DNA of 64,000 nucleotides from Prorocentrum cordatum (Eukaryota). The position numbers were made by a program, and so were the translations under genes. The DNA lies in the NCBI GenBank assembly GCA_963575745.1, contig CAUYUJ010000001.1, positions 1,426,001 through 1,490,000 of the forward strand, in the 5' to 3' direction. This document shows positions 5,421 to 53,771 of this stretch, one piece after another; the first letter of the stretch is position 1, and each line of letters opens with the position of its first letter. A model generated the notes under the pieces. It saw nothing but the letters and a program-made list of their open reading frames with translations. It searched no databases and was not told the origin of the DNA.

Positions 5421-7581
5421 GAGGGACAGAACACGAGGAGGAATGAGGAAGTGGGATGGAAAGGAGGGCGGGGAAGGCCAGGGCTCCTGGCGGTTGCGCG
5501 CCTGCCTGGCCTCAGTATCGTAATTGACGACGTTGCGCGCAACGCTTCTTCACGTCGGGCTACAGTCAATCCGCGTAGTAAGGATGGGCAGCCTTCCCAA
5601 GGGTACCCTTGCATCCTTGCCCTTGGGCCCATCCTTAGCGATGTTCGCTGGCCAACCTCTTTCGAAACACGTTCACATGGGCCTCCAAGGCCCATGCATC
5701 CTTACCGCGCATCCTTATGATAAGGGTTGACTGTATAGCCTGCAGCGCCATTTCAGAGTTTGCGCGCGGATCACCCTCGCGCTCCCCGTGCAGGGGGTGG
5801 GCACTCGGTCGCGAAATGGTTTCGATGAAAGGAGGAGGCTATTGAGGCGGTGCAGGAGGAGGATCGTCGCCAGTGCGCAGCACAAGTGGCAACGCTCAGC
5901 GACGCCCAACTTCGAGAGCTGGCGCCTCAGGCACGAGCCAAACTGCAGCGTGGGCGTAGCGGCAAGCGTGCCCTGTGGCGTACGTGCGAGGAGGAGGAGG
6001 AGGAGGAGGAGGAGGAGGACCAGTGTAAACCCAAGACGAATCAACGATGTTGCAACATACCTTCCCTCCAAGTTCCTTCTCAACAGGGCCCTACGAGAGT
6101 TCATACCATATTTGGGGAAAGAGCCTCATTAGAAGACAACCGTCGCAGAACCTTGACTCGTGCCAAAACACCACTCCTGGGACTTCAGCGCCGCGAATCA
6201 ACGTGACTGTTGCGTCCTGAATATTCTGAATCGTGCCAGAACGCCTTTTGTTGGACTTCGACTCCTCGAATCAACGTGACTGTTACGTCCTGGTAGTCGT
6301 AATTTTTGCCAGAGCACCGTTCCTGGGACTGAAAACCATGCGAGCCCTCGAAGCTGTTGCATACTTTTACAACGGATGTGCGAGGCCCGAAGGCGAGAGC
6401 CACATTTTGAAAAACAGCTGCCCTTCATTTTTGAAAATGCTGCAAGCTTTTCAGGCGAATGTGGGCGGCGCTACGGCGAGAGCAACATTTAGAGGACGAC
6501 CCGTCCTCCATCTTTGAAGCTGCTGTAGGTTTTCGAAGCGAATGTGCCTGCGCTAGGCCTAGAGCCGCCTTTTGAAGACGAAACGCCCTCCGACCGTCAT
6601 AATCATTTGCAAATGCCAAGCTTGAGGAAGTCTCCGGCCCAGCTCGCCCTACCCGCCACGTCTGGAGGCGCGACAGGGAGGCGATTTTTGAGGAAAAAAA
6701 GGGCGTGTAGGTTGAGGAGGAGGCAATGCCAGAGGCGAGTTCCTCCTGCTCCCGCCGCTCCCGGCCAGGCCTGGGCGGCCAGGCGTCCCTGTCCGTCAAG
6801 GCGGCGGACGCGGACGCCGTGAGGCGCCGCGTCGCCATCCCCTCGCTTGGGGCGATGGTGGGGAGCAAGGCGCGGCTGTCGAGCGGGAGGCAGGGGCGGG
6901 GAGGGCTGCTAAAATTGTCAATGCGCATGGAATCCCCGAGATGGAATCGAAAACATGAGAATAGCTGTAGAAATAACGTTTCGAACAAGCAGTGTTCAAA
7001 ACAAGCAATGTCCCAAACAAACGAGAGTAAATCGAACAAATGAGAGAGTGCCCAAAACAAATGCAGTAATAACGTTTCAAACGTGATTCAAGACGCAAGC
7101 CGATCTCAGGCCGAGGGGGAGGGGAGGGCCCCGAGGTCCGGGCGTTGTCATCCTTTCACGCCAGGAGTTGTCGCCCCGTCTCCGGCCCCGCTGGGCTATC
7201 ACGGGTCGATCCGGCTCGCGTTTAGGGCGTTGGTCGTGTTTTTTCGCGATGTTGCATGAGGGGGAGTGAGGGAGGGAGGGAGAAGGGGAGCGAGGGAGGG
7301 AGAGAGGGAGAAGGGAAGAGTGAGGGGGAAGGGAGGGATGGAGGGAGTTCTGTGTTTCTTCTCCCTCCTTCTTCACTCCCCGCCCTGCTCCTTCCCCCTC
7401 GTCGTCCCTCCTTCCTTCCCCCTCGTCGTTCTCTCTCCTCCCTCCTCTTGGTGCTCGTCGACTGCACTCATCGTCGCACCGGCCAGGAAGCCGCCCCGCG
7501 AGAGTGGCCGAAGGTCTTCGGCGGCCACGTCGTGAAACCTGCCACACAGGGGCGAGGAAGCATCCCAGGCGCGTGCACTCG

Positions 7582-7793
7582 TCTAGGCCTCACAGATGGG
7601 GTCCGAGTAGATGGGGTCGGAGAATCGCGCCGCATCGGCGATGCATCGGAGATGCGGCTCGATGTGGGGCCCGAATTTCTCCACGCCGACGTTGCCGATG
7701 CACCGCCGAAGTCGGCGATGCATCGCCGAAGCATCGCCGATGCGGCGCGGTCCTCCGACCCCATCTACCCGGACCCCATCTAGGAGGCCCTCA
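7582..7793. mobile_element. Foldback/MITE-like palindromic element, family M2 (~210 bp)
   Basis: AGATGGGGTCCGAGTAGATGGGGTCGGAGAATCGCGCCGCATCGGCGATGC from 7594 is the near-perfect reverse complement of GCATCGCCGATGCGGCGCGGTCCTCCGACCCCATCTACCCGGACCCCATCT ending at 7781. Possible 5-bp TSD ACTCG at 7577-7581 and 7794-7798. Confidence 0.75.
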
Positions 7794-7929: not shown

Positions 7930-9200
7930 GCGCTTGGGGGAACCACTGGGGGAGCACCGGGAAGGGGCCCTCTGCTGTCATCTCGGGGCTCTCTTCACAC
8001 CATTGGGGCCTTCTCGGTGGCCTCCCGGGGCTCTCTGAGGCCGCCTTTGGATGGTCTCGGGGTGCTCTCGGGCCGTCTGGCGCCTCCGGGGGCTGTCCTG
8101 GGGGGCCTACGTGGTCCACCTTAGGGACCTCTCGGGGCTCTTCTCGGCGACGAGCGAGGTGGGGAAGTGAGAAGGAGAAGGCCTTCTCAGGAGCCCTCGC
8201 GCCTTCTGAGAAGTTGTCTGTGTCTTCGGGGAAGGCTTAGAAAACTTCTCAGAGGGCCCGGGGACTTCCGAGCCTTCTGAGAAGGCCCGCCCTTTCTCTC
8301 ACTTCCCCTCCTCGCTCGCTGCGTAGTCTTGGGGCTCCCTTGGGTCATCATAGGGCCTTCTTGTGTTCTCATGGTGTCGTCTGGGTGCCGCTTTGGGGCC
8401 CTCTTGGAGGCGTGTTCTATTGCCTTGGGGCGATGTTCAGGGCCCCTTGTACTGTCGTGGGTTTTTCAGAAGCCCGAAAAGGCCAGGATTCGAGAACGGT
8501 TCAAATACACGTGAGGGAAGTCAATACTTTGGGCCTTTTTGAGGCCTCCTGCAGGTCCTCTTGGAGTTCTCTCGTGGCAGCTTGGGCCGCCTGGAGGCCA
8601 TCTCGTCAGTCTTGGCGCCAGGCCATCGTGGGCTCTCTTTGGACCATCTTGGCCGTCTTGGAGGCCGTCTTCAGCGCACACGCTATTGAGTCCCAACTTG
8701 TAATGCCGTTCCCGGATGGCCAGCGGGTTTGTCTGGAGGCCGCCAGGAATATTTTCGGCAGGAAGAGAGTGGGAGCTATGTAATCTGGCACCCCGCCGCC
8801 TCTCTGACAGGAGGCCTCTTGGAGGTCTCCTGGGTATCTCGGGGCCTCCCAGGAGGTGGTGGCCTCTCGGGGCCTCTTGGCGGCCTCATGGGATCCTGCT
8901 GGCGGTCTCAAGGGCCTCTCTGGAGCGGAGAGCTTGAAATATCAGTTCGGGTTCGTTTTCGTGGGGGCTGTCTTGGGGGCCTCTGTAGCCGTCTTGGGAG
9001 CCTGGGGGGCCGTCTTGGAGCGATCATGGGGGCCTGTTGGGCCGTCTTGGATGTTCTGCAGACCGAAGTGACGAGCATACAAAACAATTCAGGAGCGTGT
9101 GGCTTTCAATCATGTGGGCATCTTGGGCTTCCCCCCAGGGCCTCCAAGACGGCCACAACGGCCCCCTAGAGGGCCTCGTAACGGGCCCGGAGACCATCTT
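7930..9200. repeat. Dispersed GGGGCC(T/G)TCTTGG-rich repeat family
   Basis: The same degenerate GGCCTCTTGG/GGCCGTCTTGG composition recurs at about 12990-13560, 13890-14400, 25070-25780, 31150-31380 (minus), 36310-36530 and 44660-45300. Confidence 0.7.
8151..8318. mobile_element. MITE-like element, family M1, with 22-bp terminal inverted repeats
   Basis: The left end CGAGCGAGGTGGGGAAGTGAGA matches the reverse complement of the right end TCTCACTTCCCCTCCTCGCTCG at 21/22 positions. Further copies lie at 1682-1878 and about 22385-22555. Confidence 0.8.
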
Positions 9201-43226: not shown

Positions 43227-45345
43227 GTAACGCCATACAGACGGCCCTAGGCGGGGCCCCCATCCATCCTCCTCCCTCTCCCCTGCCCCTCCCTCCTTCT
43301 CCCGTCCTCCTTCTCTTCCCTCTCGCCCCTCCCCCTCCTCCCTCCCTCTTCCCCTTCCTCTTCGTTATCTCTCTTGCTGTGTTCCCCCCCTCCTCCCTCT
43401 TCCTACTGTTCTCCCGTTCTCCTCATGCTTTTCCTTCTGCTTTTTCTCCCGCTCCTGCTCATCCTGCCCGTTCCTCCACTTCTTCACATGAACGCCCCTG
43501 AGGGGGCAGACACCGTCGCCCCACCATGTTTGGATCCTGGAGACTCTGTGGGAGCGGCGGCCGCTCCGCGCGCGCGCGCGCGAATAGGAGAGGTTCTGGT
43601 GCTGGTGCTGGTGCTTCCGCTTGGACGCCTTGTGGGGCTCTATGGAGAGGGCATTGGGCTCCTCAGCGAGTTCTCTGTCGTATGAGCCTGAGCCCAGGAC
43701 GGCCGCAGAGAGGCTGGAGGAACTGAAAAAACCGTCGGGCTCGTCCGAGAAAGCGCGCCAAGGAATGTCTTTCACATGGCCCTGAGGCTAGGACGGCTGC
43801 AGAGAGGCTGGAGAAGCTCAACAAAAACCGTGGGGTTCGTCCCAGGGGGACCTCTGGAGGGGCCCCCAAAAGAGCTGGAATGGGTCAAGTGCGGCGACTG
43901 GGGTGAACGATGAAAACAGGAAGGGGAAAAAGGCAGTCCCGGTTTGTTTGCGGTTCCTGGGAGAGCCCCTGGAGACTCTAGGGGCGCCCCAGATGGGCGA
44001 AATACGGTGCCAAGAAGGCGGCCAGACGGCTCAAGTTGGGTCCGAGAGGCTGTCAGGACGGTCGTAGAGAGCATGCCCTGGTTCTAAGATGGCCGCAAGA
44101 CCCAGCGGAGATGCACGGGAGCTCCGAGAGAGGCGCAAGGAGAAGTGCGAGATGGCCGGAATCATCAAAACCCTATGTGTGTTTACGATGTTTTTTGCTT
44201 GTTGGGGTGTTCTGGTGTATGTGGCTCGAAAAGGGCTGGAAAGGCATCTGAAACGGCTCAAAGTGGCCTGAAGGAGGGTGAACATGAGCCCAGGAGAGCG
44301 CGCTAAAAGCCGGCCCAGTGGGCTCTGGTCTCTGAGAACGCCTGGCGGCGCCTGGAAGGCAAGCATGTGAAAGGAGGGTCGTCTTGGGACGGAAATGGCG
44401 GCCAGAAGGCGCCCCGGCTGCAGCCGGGGCCCCCGGGCCGGCGGAATGAGCGAGGCGCGGGGAGGACCCTGGGAGGGGTTGCGAGGGCTCAGAGGCAGGG
44501 GTAGGTATGAAAAGCGTGCTGGAGAGAAGACTTACACACAGCACTATTGAAGACCATGCTGCGGATCTCACACGCCGTACCCCTTCCTCCACTTGTTAAT
44601 CGCTTCGCTCATTCCACCAGCCCGTATTGTACCATCGCGGGCGTTTGCCTGCGCGTTCGTGACCTTTCCGGGCCGTTTGGGGGCCTCTTGGAGCATCTTT
44701 TTGGGCCTCTTGGGGGCCTCGTGAGGCCTTCAGAGGCCTCCTGGGCTCTCTTGGGGGCCTCTTGGGGCTTCTTGGGGCTCTTGGTGCGGAAGGCTCGAAT
44801 TGGTGGTTCGTGTTTCCCCTCTTGGGGCCGTCTTGGCGGTTTCTTGGGTGATCTTGGGCGCATCTGGGGCCGTTGGGGCCCTCTTGGGGGCCTCTGGGGC
44901 TGTCTTGGGGCGGTCTTGGGGGTCTCTTGGGCTGTCTTGGAGCGTCGGGAAGCTGAGAAGGCGAGAACGCCAATATTCATCAAACACCAATGGACAATCA
45001 ATGATTTGTGCCTCTTGGGGCTCTTGTGGGAGGCATCTTGGAGGCCTCTTGGGGCGTCTTGGAGGCCTCGTGGGCCGTCTGGAAGCCATCTTGAGTGTCT
45101 CGGACGGATCGTTCGACGATTCGGAACCCTCTTGGACCGTCTTGGGGGCGTCTCTTGGGGTCCACTTGGAGCGCTCTGGGGCGCCTGAAAACCTCGCCCA
45201 GGATGAAAACCATGTCTGATCCGCACCGCCTGGGGACCGCCCGGGGGCCTGCCGGGGTGCTTTTCGTCCGGGGATCCCAAGGGGCGGCCGCGCGCGCGCG
45301 AACTAGAAGTATTGTTAATCTGTTACCTGAGATTTTAGCACGCCT

Positions 45346-45847
45346 ATGGTGGACTGACATTAGGTGAAAGGGGTTCTGCGCCTGTCAGTATGATCTTCGC
45401 GGGGCGGGGGATATCGCAGGGATGCGGGAATCTCATCGGTCAGGGGGCGAAGCTTTGTGCCACGATAGTTTGCCTCATCAGAGCACCTTCGGTGATCATC
45501 TGTTATTTTCACCTGGCCTCAACAACTTCAGCTGACCATCGCCATCACACCATCATAGCAGCGAATTTCGTGACATTTTCGTTGCGTCTTTCATTGCGGT
45601 GCGATTAACATTCTCCGGCTGGCGTCGAGGAATTCCGTGGCAGCCAGAAGATAACGGATGGGCCAGCACGACGATTTCCGCCAGTGCTTAGGAGAACAAC
45701 CAGTCCCATCACGTAGCTACTCCTGGCGACCGTTTAGATTGCCACGGCTTGTGACGAGCGATCGTCGTCGATGCTATCGCCATCATCGCCGTCGTCACCA
45801 TCGCCGTCGCTACCCATAGCCGTGGGTTCGAGCCTTGGCGAAACTTT
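45346..45847 (+). repeat. Split direct repeat A1
   Basis: Colinear with 49114-49615; about 13 substitutions by manual count, no indels seen. Confidence 0.95.
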
Positions 45848-48843
45848 TTCTCTTGCTTTCGCTGTTGTTGTATCCTGCTGGAGGGAGTGGCATTTTGCCC
45901 CCGGCGCCGGCCTTGACAGGACCAGCGAAAGTTTGGCAGGAGGCGCACGTCCCAAACACAGTTTGGTGCTCGGATTGGCGTCCCCCTCCAGGCATGGTTC
46001 GGTCCGGGGCTGCTTTGTTCGAAGAGGCTCTCAGCTACTTTCCGGCACGATTTTTCAGTGATTGGACCGATGCTGTTGCCGACGCGCTGCGCGCACTGCA
46101 GCAGCTGGACTTCGCGCGATTTTGCGATTTTCCTGCCTACGCTTTGCAGTCTGGAGCGCCGGAGGGCGCTCTTGGGCCAGACGTGCAGGCGTTGTGGATG
46201 AAGTCGCCGATGCACGCTTCCGTGGCACATCAGCACAAGCCGTCCACCTCGGAGCTGGCGGCCCCAAATCTCGTCGATTGGGGAGTCGGGCGGCAGCGGC
46301 ACGAGGAGCTTTCGGCCCTGGTCCAGCACCCTTTTGCGCGCGACCCGCTGGTGGAGTCGGACCTCCAGTTTGTTGTCGACGCGTATGTCGCGAATGGGCC
46401 GCGTATCGAATCCCTGCGCCGTGCCCAATTGCGGCTTGTGCTGCGTGTCGCTCGGATTTTGTCGCCCCTCGACGAGCGCGTTTTGGCCCAGAGGCACGTG
46501 CGTTTGCAGGGTGCGCCTGGCGTCCGACCCGTGCACATAGCTTTTATGGTCGCTCTGATGGGTTGGCCCGACAAAGGCCTGCCGTCGCGCCTGGCACTCG
46601 GCTTCGAGCTCGCAGGCGCTATCCCCCCGTCTGGTATCTTGCGCCCTATTGCCACGAAACACATTGGCAAGGGCCCCGAACCAGAAGCTGGGGAAGAGGT
46701 TTTTGGGGGCGATGCTTGTCGGTGCGTTGCGGCAGTTGAGTCCACGCGCCATCCGTCCAAAAACGTTGGTGCCATCTGGGATCTTACGCTTGCCGAGATC
46801 TCCGAAGGCATAGCGGACCCGATGCGCACCAAGGACGAGATGGACAGCCTGCACGGGGCAGGCAGATGGCGCCCGCTGGTCCGCCATGTCATCTGGCAGG
46901 CAGACAAATGGCGGCCCATCGATGACGGAAAACGCTCCCGCACGAACGCGCTGCCCTCGACTCACGAGACGGTGGTGTGCATCCCGCCGGAGTTCGTCAT
47001 CATACTCTTGAAATGCATGGCCCTGTCTTTCATCAAGGCGTCCGGTGGCATTCCGCCCTGGTTCAAGCCTATGGTGTCGCTCGAAGATTGGTGGAAAGGC
47101 TACCGACAGCCCTTCCCGACGAGCGAACGCATGGGGTTGGCAGTAGTCGCTGTCATGTGCCCCGAGACGCGGTCGTGGCTGTACGCGCAGCTTCGCGGGC
47201 TCCCCTTCGGCTTGGGCTCCGCCGTCAATCAATTCACTCGCGCGGCCGGGTTTGTGACGGCGCTCAATCGCCGGATCTTGCTAACGCTCACAGGCCACTA
47301 CGCCGACGACAGCCCCGCCGTAGAACTCAGCTGCTTGGCGGGCCTGCGCTGGTCAGCGTCCAACATCGTGCAGGAGTCTGCAGTGTGCAGCGGAGTTAAA
47401 TATTCCGCTAGCAAGCACCGGCCGCCGTCTTTCATGTTCAATTCTTTGGGCCACCTCCATGATCTCGTGCGCACGTGTTATGCGCTGGGTGCCACGTGGG
47501 GCCCGAAATTGCACGCCCGCGAGCGCCTGGTCGAGATCAGCATGGCCGCGGTCCAGTCGGGGCGCCTCTCCTCTGGGACTGCGGCAAAAATGCGCGGCTT
47601 GGCAACGTGGATGGACGCGGCTCTCGCGGGCCGATGCCTTCGGGCGGCTGGGCATGCTCTTACTGCTCGACAGTACTGGGGCTGGAGCGAAGAGGTCACT
47701 GTTGGGTCCAATTTATGGGAATCGCTGCACTATATCGCGGCAGCGGCGCGGTGCATGCCTGATAGGTGCGTTTCCCTTATCCGCCCTACCGCCCCGCCAG
47801 TGCGCGTCTACACCGACGCAGCTGCTGACGCAGACCGCGTTCGGCTGGGCGCCAAAGTGATTATCTCCGATGGCCGCGCGTTCGTGACTGTGTTGGATGC
47901 GGACCAGTGCCTTCGCGAGACCTGGGGCCCGCAAGACACAGTCATCAATCAGGCAGAGCTCCAATGTGGCGCCCTCGTGGCGGCCACTTTTGCCAAAGAG
48001 TTGCGCGGCCAAGATGTCATTTGGTGGGTGGGCAACACTTCTGCAGCTACGTCGCTGGTCAAAGCCGGCTCTCCGACAGCCACGATGCGCCGCTTGGCGC
48101 TGCAGGCGTCGGCACTGCTGGCGGCCTTGGGTTGCAGATGCTGGTTCGAACACGTCCCCAGCGCCGACAACCCCGCGGACGTATTGTCCCGGGACGCGTT
48201 GGACGACCCCACCGTGGCCTCGATGCTGGCAGGTGGTTTTTGGATTTTCCGCCAGCCAGCGCTTCCTGCCCCGTTCTCCCACCTGACGTACCAGCAGCCG
48301 CGGTGCTGGGCGGAAAACAGCGAGACTGCATGTCCTGAGAGTTTGCTCCCAGAGAAAACTCAAGCATCCTTTCCTTTCCTCCTCCGTAGCCTCCGTAGAC
48401 CCACTACCTCCCCCGCCCCCCCAATCTCGGAGCACCTCCAGGGGCTCCCAGCCGACGGGCGCGCAGCTCCGCCCAAAGCGCAGACCCGGGCCTTACCGCC
48501 GTTTCGGCGCCGCGAGGCCGGCACCCCATCGAGGAGGCCGAGGAGAGCAGGGGGGGGGGAAAGTGGCGGGGAGAGCGGCAAAGGACCACAGGAGAGAGGT
48601 GGAGGAAAATGCGGCAAGGGGGAGCAACAAAACGCCTTCCATAAACGTAAACCTGTGTCCTGCGGACGTGGCCGAAATTCGTCCCTGAAAGGACGCGCGG
48701 GCTACCAGTCGCGTGTGCGCGCGCGTGCGCCTTGGAAGTCTGCTGCAGACCCTCGCGCCGGTCACTCTATGCACCCGTGCGTCTCCGCTGCCTCTGCGGG
48801 CGGCGTTGGGCGTGGGTCAGAGCCATGCGAAGAGGAGGGGTGA
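45835..48843 (+). CDS. DIRS-type reverse transcriptase-RNase H polyprotein (true start uncertain; first ATG at 45994)
   Basis: 1002-codon uninterrupted frame with WRPIDDGKRS, EDWWKGYRQ, LPFGLGSAV, HYADD (47296-47310), then RNase H motifs VYTDA, INQAEL, WWVGNTSA and HVPSADNPADVLSR. The last ~180 codons look like read-through. Confidence 0.9.
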   Translation: MAKLFLLLSLLLYPAGGSGILPPAPALTGPAKVWQEAHVPNTVWCSDWRPPPGMVRSGAALFEEALSYFPARFFSDWTDAVADALRALQQLDFARFCDFPAYALQSGAPEGALGPDVQALWMKSPMHASVAHQHKPSTSELAAPNLVDWGVGRQRHEELSALVQHPFARDPLVESDLQFVVDAYVANGPRIESLRRAQLRLVLRVARILSPLDERVLAQRHVRLQGAPGVRPVHIAFMVALMGWPDKGLPSRLALGFELAGAIPPSGILRPIATKHIGKGPEPEAGEEVFGGDACRCVAAVESTRHPSKNVGAIWDLTLAEISEGIADPMRTKDEMDSLHGAGRWRPLVRHVIWQADKWRPIDDGKRSRTNALPSTHETVVCIPPEFVIILLKCMALSFIKASGGIPPWFKPMVSLEDWWKGYRQPFPTSERMGLAVVAVMCPETRSWLYAQLRGLPFGLGSAVNQFTRAAGFVTALNRRILLTLTGHYADDSPAVELSCLAGLRWSASNIVQESAVCSGVKYSASKHRPPSFMFNSLGHLHDLVRTCYALGATWGPKLHARERLVEISMAAVQSGRLSSGTAAKMRGLATWMDAALAGRCLRAAGHALTARQYWGWSEEVTVGSNLWESLHYIAAAARCMPDRCVSLIRPTAPPVRVYTDAAADADRVRLGAKVIISDGRAFVTVLDADQCLRETWGPQDTVINQAELQCGALVAATFAKELRGQDVIWWVGNTSAATSLVKAGSPTATMRRLALQASALLAALGCRCWFEHVPSADNPADVLSRDALDDPTVASMLAGGFWIFRQPALPAPFSHLTYQQPRCWAENSETACPESLLPEKTQASFPFLLRSLRRPTTSPAPPISEHLQGLPADGRAAPPKAQTRALPPFRRREAGTPSRRPRRAGGGESGGESGKGPQERGGGKCGKGEQQNAFHKRKPVSCGRGRNSSLKGRAGYQSRVRARAPWKSAADPRAGHSMHPCVSAASAGGVGRGSEPCEEEG

Positions 48844-48860
48844 GAGCGGCGTTGGGGGGG

Positions 48861-49116
48861 AGCGTCCCTGCCCAGGTCCCGCGCGAGGCCTGTGCTCATC
48901 GGGGCTTGCCCTCCTCCTCGCTGCCAAAGCCCCGCATGGGGCTGGCAGTGGGTTCCAATGGTCCACCCAATATCCACATACACACTTAGTGCTCACACTC
49001 CGTCCCCCTCCATTCCTTCGCCCCCCTGTCTCTGCATCCTTCCCTGGCCATCGCATCTCTCCGCCTTGCCTCCACGTTGGCCTCGTGCGCTATCCTATCT
49101 AGCCCCTGCGAAGATG
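48861..49116 (+). repeat. Split direct repeat B1
   Basis: Colinear with 49938-50193; about 6 substitutions by manual count. Confidence 0.95.
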
Positions 49117-49615
49117 GTGGACTGACATTAGGTGAAAGGGGGGCTGCGCCTGTCAGTATGATCTTCGCGGGGCGGGGGATCTCGCAGGGATGCGGGCATC
49201 TCATCGGTCAGGGGGCGAAGCTTTGTGCCACAATAGTTTGCCTCATCAGAGCACCTTCGGTGATCATATGATATTTTCACCTGGCCTCAACAACTTCAGC
49301 TGACCATCGCCATCACACCATCATAGCAGCGAATTTCGTGACATTTTCGTTGCGTCTTGCATTTTGGTGCGATTAACATTCTCCGGCTGGCGTCGAGGAA
49401 TTCCGTGGCAGCCAGAAGATAACGGATGGGCCAGCGCGACGATTTCCGCCAGTGCTTAGGAGAACAACCAGTCCCATCACGCAGATACTCCTGGCGACCG
49501 TTTAGATTGCCACGGCTTGTGACGAGCGATCGTCGTCGATGCTATCGCCATCATCGCCGTCGTCACCATCGCCGTCGCTACCCATAGCCGTGGGTTCGAG
49601 CCTTGGCGAAACTTT
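49114..49615 (+). repeat. Split direct repeat A2 (shares the ATG with B1)
   Basis: Junction reads ...CCCCTGCGAAG ATG GTGGACTGACATTAGG... Confidence 0.95.
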
Positions 49616-49937
49616 CCCTGGGCCCACCCGCCCAGTTTCGTCATGAGATTTGCTCGTGCCTCGTGTGGGGTAGCGTGACGCGCGGGCCGGTATCCCATGG
49701 CACGTTCCGGATACTTACGGTCCTGTGGCATGTTGCCCCGTGGCACCAGAAGCTGACCACGCCGTGGCGTGGTTTGGTGCCGTGTTGGTTGCCGGCGGGG
49801 GCATTGCAGTACGCAGTGTGGCGCATCGCGCTGCGGCATCCTGTGGAACGGCAGCCTGAAGGAGGCGTCCCGCATCATAGGTAAGGTGCGGGTGTTCCCC
49901 CATAAGCGCGCGCCTCCCCAGGTGCACGCGGGCAGGA

Positions 49938-50193
49938 AGCGTCCCTGCCCATGTCCCGCGCGAGGCCTGTGCTTATCGGGACTTGCCCTCCTCCTCGCTG
50001 CCAAAGCCCCGCATGGGGCTGGCAGTGGGTTCCAATGGTCCACCCAATATCCACATACACACTTAGTGCTCACACTCCGTCCCTCTCCATTCCTTCGCCC
50101 CCCTGTCTCTGCTTCCTTCCCTGGCCATCGCATCTCTCCGCCTTGTCTCCACGTTGGCCTCGTGCGCTATCCTATCTAGCCCCTGCGAAGATG
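49938..50193 (+). repeat. Split direct repeat B2 (element 3' end)
   Basis: Ends ...CCCCTGCGAAG ATG, followed by unrelated flank ACAAGTTC. Confidence 0.95.
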
Positions 50194-51361
50194 ACAAGTT
50201 CTGCCGGCGGATTCTTCTTTATCGTCCTCTTCGCCCTTTGTCTCCCCTTATTGCTGCGGTTCCCCCTTGTCATCCTGGTCTCCCTCCTCCTCGGTTGTCG
50301 ATTTTGTCTCAAGCCTTGGTCGCCTTGCCCCTGCGCCACGACTCCTCGCAAATCTCATTCCGTTCCTCCTCTTTGCACCCAGCAGCCCCATGCCGCAGGC
50401 ACCACGGAGCGCCACAAAGGTTGGTTCTCGAGCAAGGTCACGATCACGCAGCGAGGCTACCCGATCTGTGGTTCCAGGGTCGGACCAAGCTAGCCGTGGA
50501 GAGAGAGGTAAAGGCGGAGGGGAGCTGACTGATGGACGCACGGGCCCTTTCGCTGATGCGACCTCACATCGAGTGGTGTGCTGGAGGCGGACGCTGTGCA
50601 GTTTTCTGGGACGATCACTGTTGAGCGCTGCAGCGCTGAAAGTGCCACGGAGACGGGGGCTTTGTATTATAATGCAACAAGAGGGGGGGTACTGTAGGGT
50701 CGCGGGGGGAGAACATGTCGGGGGAGGACGTGGTGTTCGGGCGGAGTGGCGGAGACGGAGCCTGTGCAGTAGAACGTGGTTGCCAAGTTACGGTTTGGGA
50801 AAGTGCTGTCGAGAGCAGCGGGTGATGTGTAGGCCACGGGTGCTGCGTAATGGAAACGGGGCATTGTAGCAGAGGGTGGTTTTCAAGTTATTTTTTTGTT
50901 GAGGGTGCCGTCGGCCAGAGCACGGTGTGTAGGAGCCAGGGGCTGCCTGGGACACGGTGATGTGACAGAGACTGAGGTTATGTAGTAGAAGGTGGCCGGG
51001 ACGATGGCATGCCATTGCGTTGCAACGGCTGTTCGGTGCGGCAATTGTCGAAACGCTCCGCTCTCGAGCGCTCTGCAACGGAAGCGCCAACCCGTGCGTC
51101 TTCTGGGCTCCAAGGCTCTCAGAGATCCCCGAGTGGCTTTTGCCCGAAACGCTCTACTGGCAAAGCGGCGGCTTGGCGCCTTCCAGACTCCCAAAGAATT
51201 TCCCGGACCCCCAACGTCCAGCCCCCCCCAATCCTACAGGACCTCCCTTCAATAACTCCAAGACCCCCTTCGAGCCACCCGCAATCTGAAGCAGGTGGGA
51301 CTGTTGTCCCACATCACGTTTAGCCCGAGGACTGTTTACATGTCACCCACCCGTGATCGAC

Positions 51362-52119: not shown

Positions 52120-52830
52120 GGAGCCAGGGGCCTCATCATCTGGAACTTGCTTCCCGGCCACGTGGCTTTCGCCTCGTCTTCGGACGCTGGTGGCGTGGGG
52201 CCGTTTGACCACATGGTGGGCGACAGGGGTCTCCCAGAGGACCCAACCCAGGACGCGTGGCTTGCGTTGGCGACGGACAACGAGTCTCTCGGACAACAGA
52301 TCCGCGAAATATTTAATTCTCGGCTGGCGCATCTGCAAACTTAGGCCGAAGAATACTTCTAGGCCGAAGAATACTTCCACCCTGGCGGGAAAGACGCAGG
52401 CGCCGTCCACAGCCGCGGCCGAGGTGCAGTATTTACAGGTATTGTACCTGGGCGCTGCATTCCAGGACGTAGAGATCCAGGACCATCACAGGAACTCAGG
52501 GCAGTTTACCATTGTTCTGCGTCGAGACTACCGGTTTGGATCGAGGTAAGAGCAAGTCCACGTGGTGGACGCGAAGTCCATATACGATACCATGCTCAAG
52601 AACGGGCGAGCGAGTGCCCGAGACCGACGAATTGCCATAGATCTCGCGATCACTTGCGAGGCTCTGGAGTGTGAGAGGCGACGCGGGATGGATACCTCAT
52701 GGGTGCATGCACTTGGATTCTCTCACGAAGGACGACGTATCCAAGGGCACCGCCGCCTTATTGGATCTAGTGATAATCGGACGGTGGGTGTTGGTGGACG
52801 AGGTCGCCGAGGCTTGAACGCCCGAAGTAA
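52120..52830 (+). mobile_element. Decayed Ty1/Copia pol 3' end (RNase H domain)
   Basis: Across frameshifts: VAFASSSDAG, STLAGKTQAPSTAAAEVQYL (STLAAE-like), VVDAKSIYDTM...DRRIAIDLAI, WIPHGCMHLDSLTK (ADxLTK-like). Contains an 18-bp tandem duplication TAGGCCGAAGAATACTTC at about 52342-52377. Confidence 0.75.
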
Positions 52831-53771
52831 CAGCCCAGTTTCAAGAAGCGTTCCCAGGCCGCCTTCAGGAGGGAGCTTGACGACCAGGAATTCGCTCCGT
52901 TGCAGGAGTCCAAGGTCCAGGACCGGGGGTACCCATCAGTGGTGGTGGTGTCTCCTCTCCTCTACCTTCTCTCTCCTCTTGTTCTCCTCAGTTGTCCTAT
53001 CGATGATGTGTCATCCGTGCCGCATTTATTATCATACGTTCCGTATCCTCTCGGGGGCTCAGAACAGTCGTCATAACGACGTACTGTTTCGCACAACCGG
53101 CCCTCAGCAGGCCAGACGTTTAGATTTGCTAAACCTGGCAGTACGTTTTAATTCTGAAGCAACTGGGTTCATTTTCCCACACATCAGTTTTCGCCCGAGG
53201 ATGGCTTATATGTTACCCATCTGTGACAGTCACGTTTGCCTTGAGTGGAACACATCTGCTTAGGCTGCTGTTCCAAATCGCACGGAACTTCTAACAGCCC
53301 ACGAACATTTCCAGGAACCCCTCCAAAACACATTGCGGCGCTGGCGGTCGCTCAGCGCGGGGTGGCCTGAACGGGTTGCGCTTTGGACAACTTGTGCCAT
53401 GGAGGCTGGCACCAGGGCGGCCGCAAAGTGTGGGGGGCTGAAATTGAAGCAAGGCGAGGCGCTCAGGACGTTATGGAATTTGCGCCGGTGCCGCGGGTCA
53501 GGCTCCGGGAGGGAGTCGTGCCAAGGGGCGGCCCAGTGCACAGTGCGGACCTTTCAGGGCGTAGTGTGTGGGATCTGAGAGGTTCTCGAAGATACCGTGC
53601 GCGCTCGGTGGCGAAATCCGAACCCTACCTTCGCCGAATCAACGAGTCAGGCAACTCGATGGGCGGCGTGGGGTAGGGTTCGGAGCTCGTCGAAGAGTTG
53701 GCGAAATCCCAACCCCACCCCCACGTCTCATCGGTTAAGGGTCAGGATGTCGCCACCTACCCGCCTCCCAG

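Follow-up and report, generated by a model that had tools for sequence, protein, structure and literature searches.

A hairpin spanning the B/A junction of a split-direct-repeat retroelement of Prorocentrum cordatum, a possible structure-defined recombination site

In the window, the whole stretch of 64,000 nucleotides of Prorocentrum cordatum DNA that was analyzed, self-comparison detects one copy of a split-direct-repeat retroelement, with the following features.

45334..45345, + strand: left flank, possibly a preferred target sequence
45346..50193, + strand: the element, A1-pol-B1-A2-spacer-B2, internally deleted, with ATG at both ends (self-comparison)
45346..45847, + strand: repeat A1, 502 nt, carrying a copy of the partner arm with which only the inner 7-bp stem is possible
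45820..48843, + strand: open frame for a 5'-truncated Pol with RT (YADD at 47299) and RNase H (YTDA at 47809)
48849..48856, + strand: GCGTTGGG motif directly before B1, a candidate second-strand primer site, with a second copy at 48803-48810
48858..49116, + strand: repeat B1, 259 nt, its final 15 nt being the outer left arm of the hairpin
49102..49115, + strand: left arm of the outer stem, the end of B, with 13 pairs and a bulged T49107 (folds)
49114..49116, + strand: ATG common to the end of B and the start of A, the putative crossover trinucleotide, at the edge of the outer stem (self-comparison)
49114..49615, + strand: repeat A2, 502 nt (self-comparison)
49116..49120, + strand: unpaired spacer GGTGG, opposite ATG 49158-49160 in a 5 by 3 internal loop (folds)
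49121..49157, + strand: inner stem of 7 bp with a weak 3-4 bp extension and a terminal loop, including TGACATTAGGTGAAA at 49123-49137
49151..49173, + strand: partner arm (nt 38-60 of A), which repeats the junction almost exactly in inverted orientation
49935..50193, + strand: repeat B2, 259 nt (self-comparison)

All repeats are direct, inverted terminal repeats not being found by self-comparison. A1 and A2 (97.4% identity, 13 differences, none of them in the stems) are as diverged as B1 and B2 (97.3%), and the ATG is present three times, at 45346-45348, in the B1/A2 overlap at 49114-49116 and at 50191-50193. The Pol frame matches best a protein labeled by its source as Prorocentrum cordatum (P0001, 87% identity) and shows 45-48% identity to the DNMT-bearing proteins P0003, P0005 and P0006. 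Pfam gave no meaningful match for RT and RNase H, whose assignment to the DIRS type is supported by motifs and homologues; a profile search found 7629 relatives of Pol at E 0.001 or better. The alignment to P0003 begins at residue 426 of that protein, and the frame starts just past the methyltransferase domain of the relatives, where PF00145 lies N-terminal to the Pol part kept here (P0003, P0005, P0006, P0012 and the related loci L001 and L002). The C5 methyltransferase is missing from the 45346-50193 copy, remnants of gag or of a tyrosine recombinase (YR) were not found in it, and a profile of 10 related YRs detected no YR in the window, L001 or L002 but did so in a third related locus, L003. 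Since the frame begins after the methyltransferase and gag and YR have left no remnant, the copy is an internal deletion derivative. Judged by its sequence, the element is a SymbioDIRS-like split-repeat retrotransposon that has lost its gag, methyltransferase and recombinase genes, and the copy accordingly classes as non-autonomous, a damaged member of a known element kind. Elsewhere in the window, the frame at 52550-53263 shows by eye a copia-like RNase H motif (VDAKSIYD ... DRRIAIDL) without a Pfam match.

The A1-ORFs-B1A2B2 layout is shared with Ngaro, PAT-like elements and VIPER, as described in the available parts of PMC8547959, PMC9210276 and PMC6681497. Closer still are the SymbioDIRS-Dnmt3 elements (de Mendoza et al. 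2018), for which the main text of PMC5890265, as far as available, reports A-coding-B-A-B repeats and an RT of Symbiodinium DIRS that is likewise undetected by Pfam. The window element resembles them in these repeats, in its divergent RT missed by Pfam, in its dinoflagellate host and in that its closest relatives carry a C5 methyltransferase in Pol, but differs in that the window copy is without gag, DNMT and YR. The three related loci all come from metagenome contigs, and none was present in the viral contigs and genome contigs searched. Their RT identity to the window element is 52% (L001), 45% (L002) and 29% (L003). L003 has the order A1, leader relic, YR, gag, pol. L002 (1-5361) has gag, immediately after it DNMT-RT-RNase H, and then B1; a YR is absent from the 6.2 kb available, and its gag gives a Luciferase_N match.

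At the B1/A2 junction, sequence on both sides of the join pairs with an inverted near-copy of the junction that sits 35 nt inside A. GCCCC at 49102-49106 pairs with 49169-49173, GCGAAGAT at 49108-49115 with 49161-49168 and ACTGACA at 49121-49127 with TGTCAGT at 49151-49157, T49107 being bulged, which gives a hairpin of 72 nt in total. The 20 pairs between 49102-49127 and 49151-49173, and the same arm segment in A1 at 45383-45405, are as a preliminary description of this DNA had claimed. That description took ACTGACA for the start of A, of which it forms nt 8-14, GGTGG at 49116-49120 staying unpaired, and regarded the arm as complementary to both element ends, which is correct for the sequence on either side of the B/A junction but not at the join itself. 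All 20 pairs are Watson-Crick and none is G-U, and for 18 of them the pair probability is 0.88 or higher when 380 nt of context are folded, whichever strand is taken and whether as RNA or as DNA.

The region 49095-49180 gives z -4.26 (plus strand) and -5.29 (minus strand) when folded as RNA and -5.84 and -5.55 as DNA. At the left genomic end (flank plus A1; z 0.21 as RNA, -0.56 as DNA) the full hairpin does not form, nor does the hairpin at the right genomic end (B2 plus flank; z -0.37 and -0.90), and the predicted B2|A1 circle junction folds into it again (z -4.7 and -5.2), bearing out the earlier proposal that it forms only across the junction. The hairpin is thus real, and its full form exists only where repeat B joins repeat A. 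Among random 86-nt windows, z -4 or lower was reached by 3 of 250 and z -5 by 1 of 250, and in a coarse scan of 341 windows within the element and its surroundings the junction hairpin came only 9th, so that its remarkable feature is position, not strength. At 56 of 20000 random positions, the 100 nt that follow contain an equally good complement of the 16 nt that precede; over 4747 element positions the same test picked out only three adjacent positions, all at the junction. The top window of the coarse scan holds a second strong hairpin, inside repeat B at about 48920-48960 and in its B2 copy. A 7-bp complement between B2 and the right flank (50228-50234) was set aside, since it is present in 217 of 20000 random 60-mers and its fold falls short of significance.

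Could the arm be an internal complementary region (ICR) as in DIRS1-type elements? The available text of PMC7192593 and PMC3266345 describes the DIRS-1 ICR as an exact contiguous complement of both termini around a 3-nt junction that is required after first-strand synthesis. The arm is comparable in that it lies inside the element, pairs with sequence from either end of it and might render the junction double-stranded over a short distance. In contrast to the ICR of these sources, which is about 88 nt long, exact, outside the terminal repeats and a template, the arm has 23 nt, lies inside repeat A and hence in two copies, and is mismatched at the junction. Reverse-complemented, the junction is TGTCAGT-CCACC-ATCTTCGC-A-GGGGC, as against TGTCAGT-ATG-ATCTTCGC-GGGGC in the arm; the arm thus deviates exactly at the join, with ATG for CCACC, and lacks one further base. 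Copying from it would therefore yield wrong ends, and it can neither template nor splint them, whereas the internal B1/A2 junction is an exact template for both ends and renders an ICR unnecessary. Identity with a DIRS1-type ICR was rejected, as the arm is not an exact contiguous complement of the termini and the element is without inverted terminal repeats. The miniature ICR-like splint of the preliminary description falls with it, the arm having ATG where CCACC is needed; its other suggestion, a recombinase-binding palindrome, is the reading favored in the following.

How might a fold that exists only at the B/A junction serve the element? The best explanation, to which we assign a probability of about 45%, is that the fold-back is the element's attachment site for its YR, defined by structure. 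In the sequence of events that we infer from the anatomy, RNA reaching from the end of A1 to the start of B2 would be copied and the second strand would be primed at GCGTTGGG beside B1, which would make the B1/A2 junction available as template. B-A would thereby be rebuilt at the other end, and the molecule could close through B. The rebuilt junction would then fold into duplexes of 13 bp and 7 bp with a mismatched spacer between them and the ATG at its edge, YR subunits attached to the duplexes would exchange a single strand with an ATG of the chromosome, and the host would complete the integration by replication or repair. The internal junction would be masked in double-stranded DNA, and as integration separates the arms, neither genomic end could refold. 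Since the YR is absent from the 45346-50193 copy, it would have to come from an intact relative.

Somewhat more than half of the stated probability belongs to the form in which single-stranded cDNA of split-repeat YR retrotransposons integrates via the folded junction hairpin as a eukaryotic counterpart of attC and CTX attP(+), a proposal that taken by itself is rather unlikely; the remainder belongs to the same inverted pair in double-stranded or cruciform DNA. Should the single-stranded folded-junction reading hold, the DIRS1 ICR and this arm would be two ways to a locally double-stranded recombination site. In double-stranded form no loxP-like inverted repeat flanks the ATG, symmetry around it not exceeding 5 of 13 for the 6 placements of the spacer at the junction, nor 6 of 13 over all 24 placements at four sites.

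Two bacterial systems offer a parallel. According to the available text of PMC5027507 and PMC4792948, attC consists of two boxes with an unpaired central spacer and 3-nt microhomology, and CTX attP(+) (PMC3442271, likewise available in part) contains two site pairs in inverted orientation that fold back; in both systems (PMC5027507, PMC4792948, PMC3442271) one strand is exchanged with short homology and the product is resolved by replication. In its predicted fold, the window hairpin has two duplexes, an unpaired spacer and an adjoining crossover triplet. As far as these sources go, it is like attC in being an imperfect hairpin of similar length (72 nt against 57-141 nt) in which an unpaired spacer separates two duplexes, with a bulged base and a 3-nt crossover homology. 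It is unlike attC in that the RYYYAAC box and its complement are absent by reading of the sequence, in that its spacer is 5 by 3 instead of 5-6 in each arm, and in that the bulged T lies in the outer stem and the crossover strand is the one spanning the junction. With CTX attP(+) it would share inverted site copies that fold to a stem with an unpaired overlap, and folding that would be masked after integration. CTX attP(+), however, is bacterial and uses host XerCD at dif (PMC3442271, available part), and recombination of a folded strand is proven for it but only conjectured for the window element.

Several observations favor the recombination site. The pairing lies across exactly the junction and is absent at both integrated ends, the geometry parallels attC and CTX attP(+), and the shape of the fold suggests that it suits a recombinase landing site better than a copying template. 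With Watson-Crick pairs at 20 of 20 positions and equal folding on both strands, the hairpin suits DNA. The lack of loxP-like symmetry around the ATG in the double strand also speaks for the site, as does DIRS-1 cDNA, which the available part of PMC7192593 describes as single-stranded and able to be integrated. Moreover, L001 (z -4.9/-6.0) and L002 (z -4.5/-3.5) have strong tail hairpins that contain ACATTTGATGT, which resembles the A-start motif of the window and L003, and the four variable positions of the window hairpin (49117, 49119, 49142 and 49143 in public contigs and close copies, among 40 of 128 differing places) are all unpaired. The other 88 places include the differences, 8 and 7, of two diverged contigs covering the hairpin, whose alignment is confined to the hairpin region at the start of A (49115-49177 and 49131-49174). 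Contigs from 4 runs contained no informative joints. The segment 49310-49374 inside A, which is common to other repeats, is met in many contigs with loose ends on both sides, at a summed depth of 127 in one run.

Against the site stands L003, the only relative with a known A start, in which 12 of 15 positions are identical to TGACATTAGGTGAAA of the window (35 of 20000 random pairs are as good) but the motif is without a significant fold (z -0.28 and 0.06), so that support from the relatives is mixed, two of the three having a strong tail hairpin at a similar motif and the third none. The hairpins of L001 and L002 differ in shape, and since the junctions of these loci could not be placed (the L002 contig ends 53 nt past the last B1/B2 difference), they cannot be said to span them. 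A covariance model built from the two window copies recovered those two copies and not the L001/L002 hairpins, MAFFT/RNAalifold did not put the stems of window and relatives in register, the ACATT motif was not among the top matches of an unbiased motif search, and no compensatory change was demonstrated. A hand alignment of the window and L002 stems that looks compensatory was discounted because the unbiased aligners chose another register. Conservation of the hairpin fold across relatives is thus no more than plausible. L004, the sole phage match to the 18-nt arm pattern, was dismissed as chance, without an adjoining B end. It further counts against the site that the YR is not encoded in the window copy or in the L001 or L002 sequence, and that single-stranded cDNA is reported, in the available text, for DIRS-1 and not for split-repeat elements. 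The DIRS-1 paper (PMC7192593) moreover assumes that a double-stranded circle integrates. A structure model of a related YR, P0161, is poor (pLDDT 43.5), and nothing matched it significantly, Cre (E 0.06) and integron integrase (E 0.14) coming closest.

Alternatively, the hairpin might act as RNA, as a signal at the internal B1/A2 junction for Gag packaging or dimerisation or as a pause or landing site for template switching. Because this junction is always within the transcript, an RNA stem needs no DNA folding, and the strong plus-strand RNA fold (z -4.26), the second strong hairpin in B and a shape that varies among relatives, as often for RNA signals, agree with such a role. We nevertheless consider it unlikely, as G-U pairs are missing from all 20 positions, Rfam yields no match and an RNA signal gives no reason for a crossover ATG at the border of stem and loop.

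A little less likely again is a non-adaptive inverted duplication that arose by template switching in reverse transcription and was carried along in the family. Short template switches are common at repeat boundaries, hairpins of equal strength occur in the 3 of 250 random windows mentioned, L003 has none and covariation was not shown. A copying accident, however, should reproduce the junction, whereas the arm differs from it at the crossover, ATG for CCACC, between perfect stems; the restriction of the two diverged contigs to the A-start hairpin region and the strong tail hairpins in two of three relatives likewise argue against an accident.

It could also be imagined that on linear cDNA the arm keeps the 3' end of B beside the 5' end of A for closure, since 13 of the 15 nt that end B, and nt 8-14 of A, pair with it. 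Such a tether is improbable because the bases at the join are unpaired, the arm not being their complement, and the internal B1/A2 junction already is an exact template for both ends. Least probable among these is that the hairpin serves self-priming, in which cDNA synthesis starts from the RNA 3' end at B2 once this has annealed to the arm, or self-cleavage as a ribozyme, both raised in the preliminary description: from 50185 on, the end of B2 can pair with the arm of A1 and of A2, and a 3' hairpin primer has been suggested for DIRS-1 (PMC7192593, available part), but priming on the arm would copy upstream sequence only and lose the spacer and B2, no ribozyme family of Rfam matches up to E 10 and a hammerhead core is absent from the plus strand at 48950-49350. 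A minus-strand CTGATGA near 49243-49249 was rejected as hammerhead, its stems not being correctly placed by eye.

What would a structure-defined attachment site mean? The end structure is apparently an undescribed variant within a known element kind: a junction hairpin or folded-strand integration in split-repeat elements was not found in the literature searched. In their available text PMC8547959, PMC6681497 and PMC3783388 do not mention hairpins, and the main text of PMC5890265, to the same extent, does not describe a junction hairpin, an end trinucleotide or a target motif for SymbioDIRS-Dnmt3. How YR retrotransposons recognize their ends is an open question; per the available part of PMC7192593 the specificity of the DIRS-1 YR has not been studied experimentally, and there is no explanation of how 3 nt of homology, in the absence of a visible palindrome, suffice for a recombinase to act. 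A foldable site offers an idea, and at 72 nt it makes end recognition amenable to an oligonucleotide assay, so that the junction hairpin provides a testable idea of how a poorly understood element class inserts. If this holds, a eukaryotic retroelement would join the bacterial cases of folded-single-strand recombination, and there would be one rationale for why the DIRS order has two end architectures.

The GCGTTGGG motif occurs in the tails of all four elements, in L001 at 3511 and 3558, in L002 at 5419 and in L003 at 11762, and at the left edge of B1 in both elements in which this edge is known (window and L002). It is the top shared motif and is conserved across elements with RT identities of 29-52%. 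At widths 12 and 14 it outscores every one of 60 shuffles, and at width 10 it is equalled by 8 of 60. Its position is where a second-strand primer would be expected, making it a candidate primer site.

The left flank together with ATGGT (45334-45350) matches the A1 flank of L003 (7372-7388) at 15 of 17 positions, and no other site among 195240 positions reaches 13 of 17. This recurrence, seen in two insertions only, suggests a preferred target, the likeness possibly reflecting either target preference or an unrecognised 5' extension. A second copy of either flank was not present within the window, and the putative empty site does not fold (z 0.17 to 1.72), so that the target is not another element's folded junction. 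This empty site, CGCCT-A-TGACA, consists of two pentamers that are also in the hairpin (49147-49151 and 49123-49127); from this and the recurrence of the left flank beside the distant L003 A1, the opened hairpin could be thought to help choose the target by base pairing, which is a very long shot. A box similar to the left flank lies at 5727-5737 of L002, within the tail and immediately ahead of the hairpin there.

The A1/A2 match of L003 stops at 7423-7443, where a putative spliced-leader relic begins. Weaker leader-like stretches lie in the window at 49582-49600 near the end of A (by eye only) and in the right flank at 50292-50313, with CCTTGG after both. Immediately to the left of the element, an array of 10-11 nt CTTGGGGGCC-type units (44600-45305) ends in GCGCGCGCGAACTAG and is possibly, by its resemblance, the end of a rolling-circle element. 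Two long imperfect palindromes were detected by self-comparison at 7586-7789 and 8151-8318 of the window.
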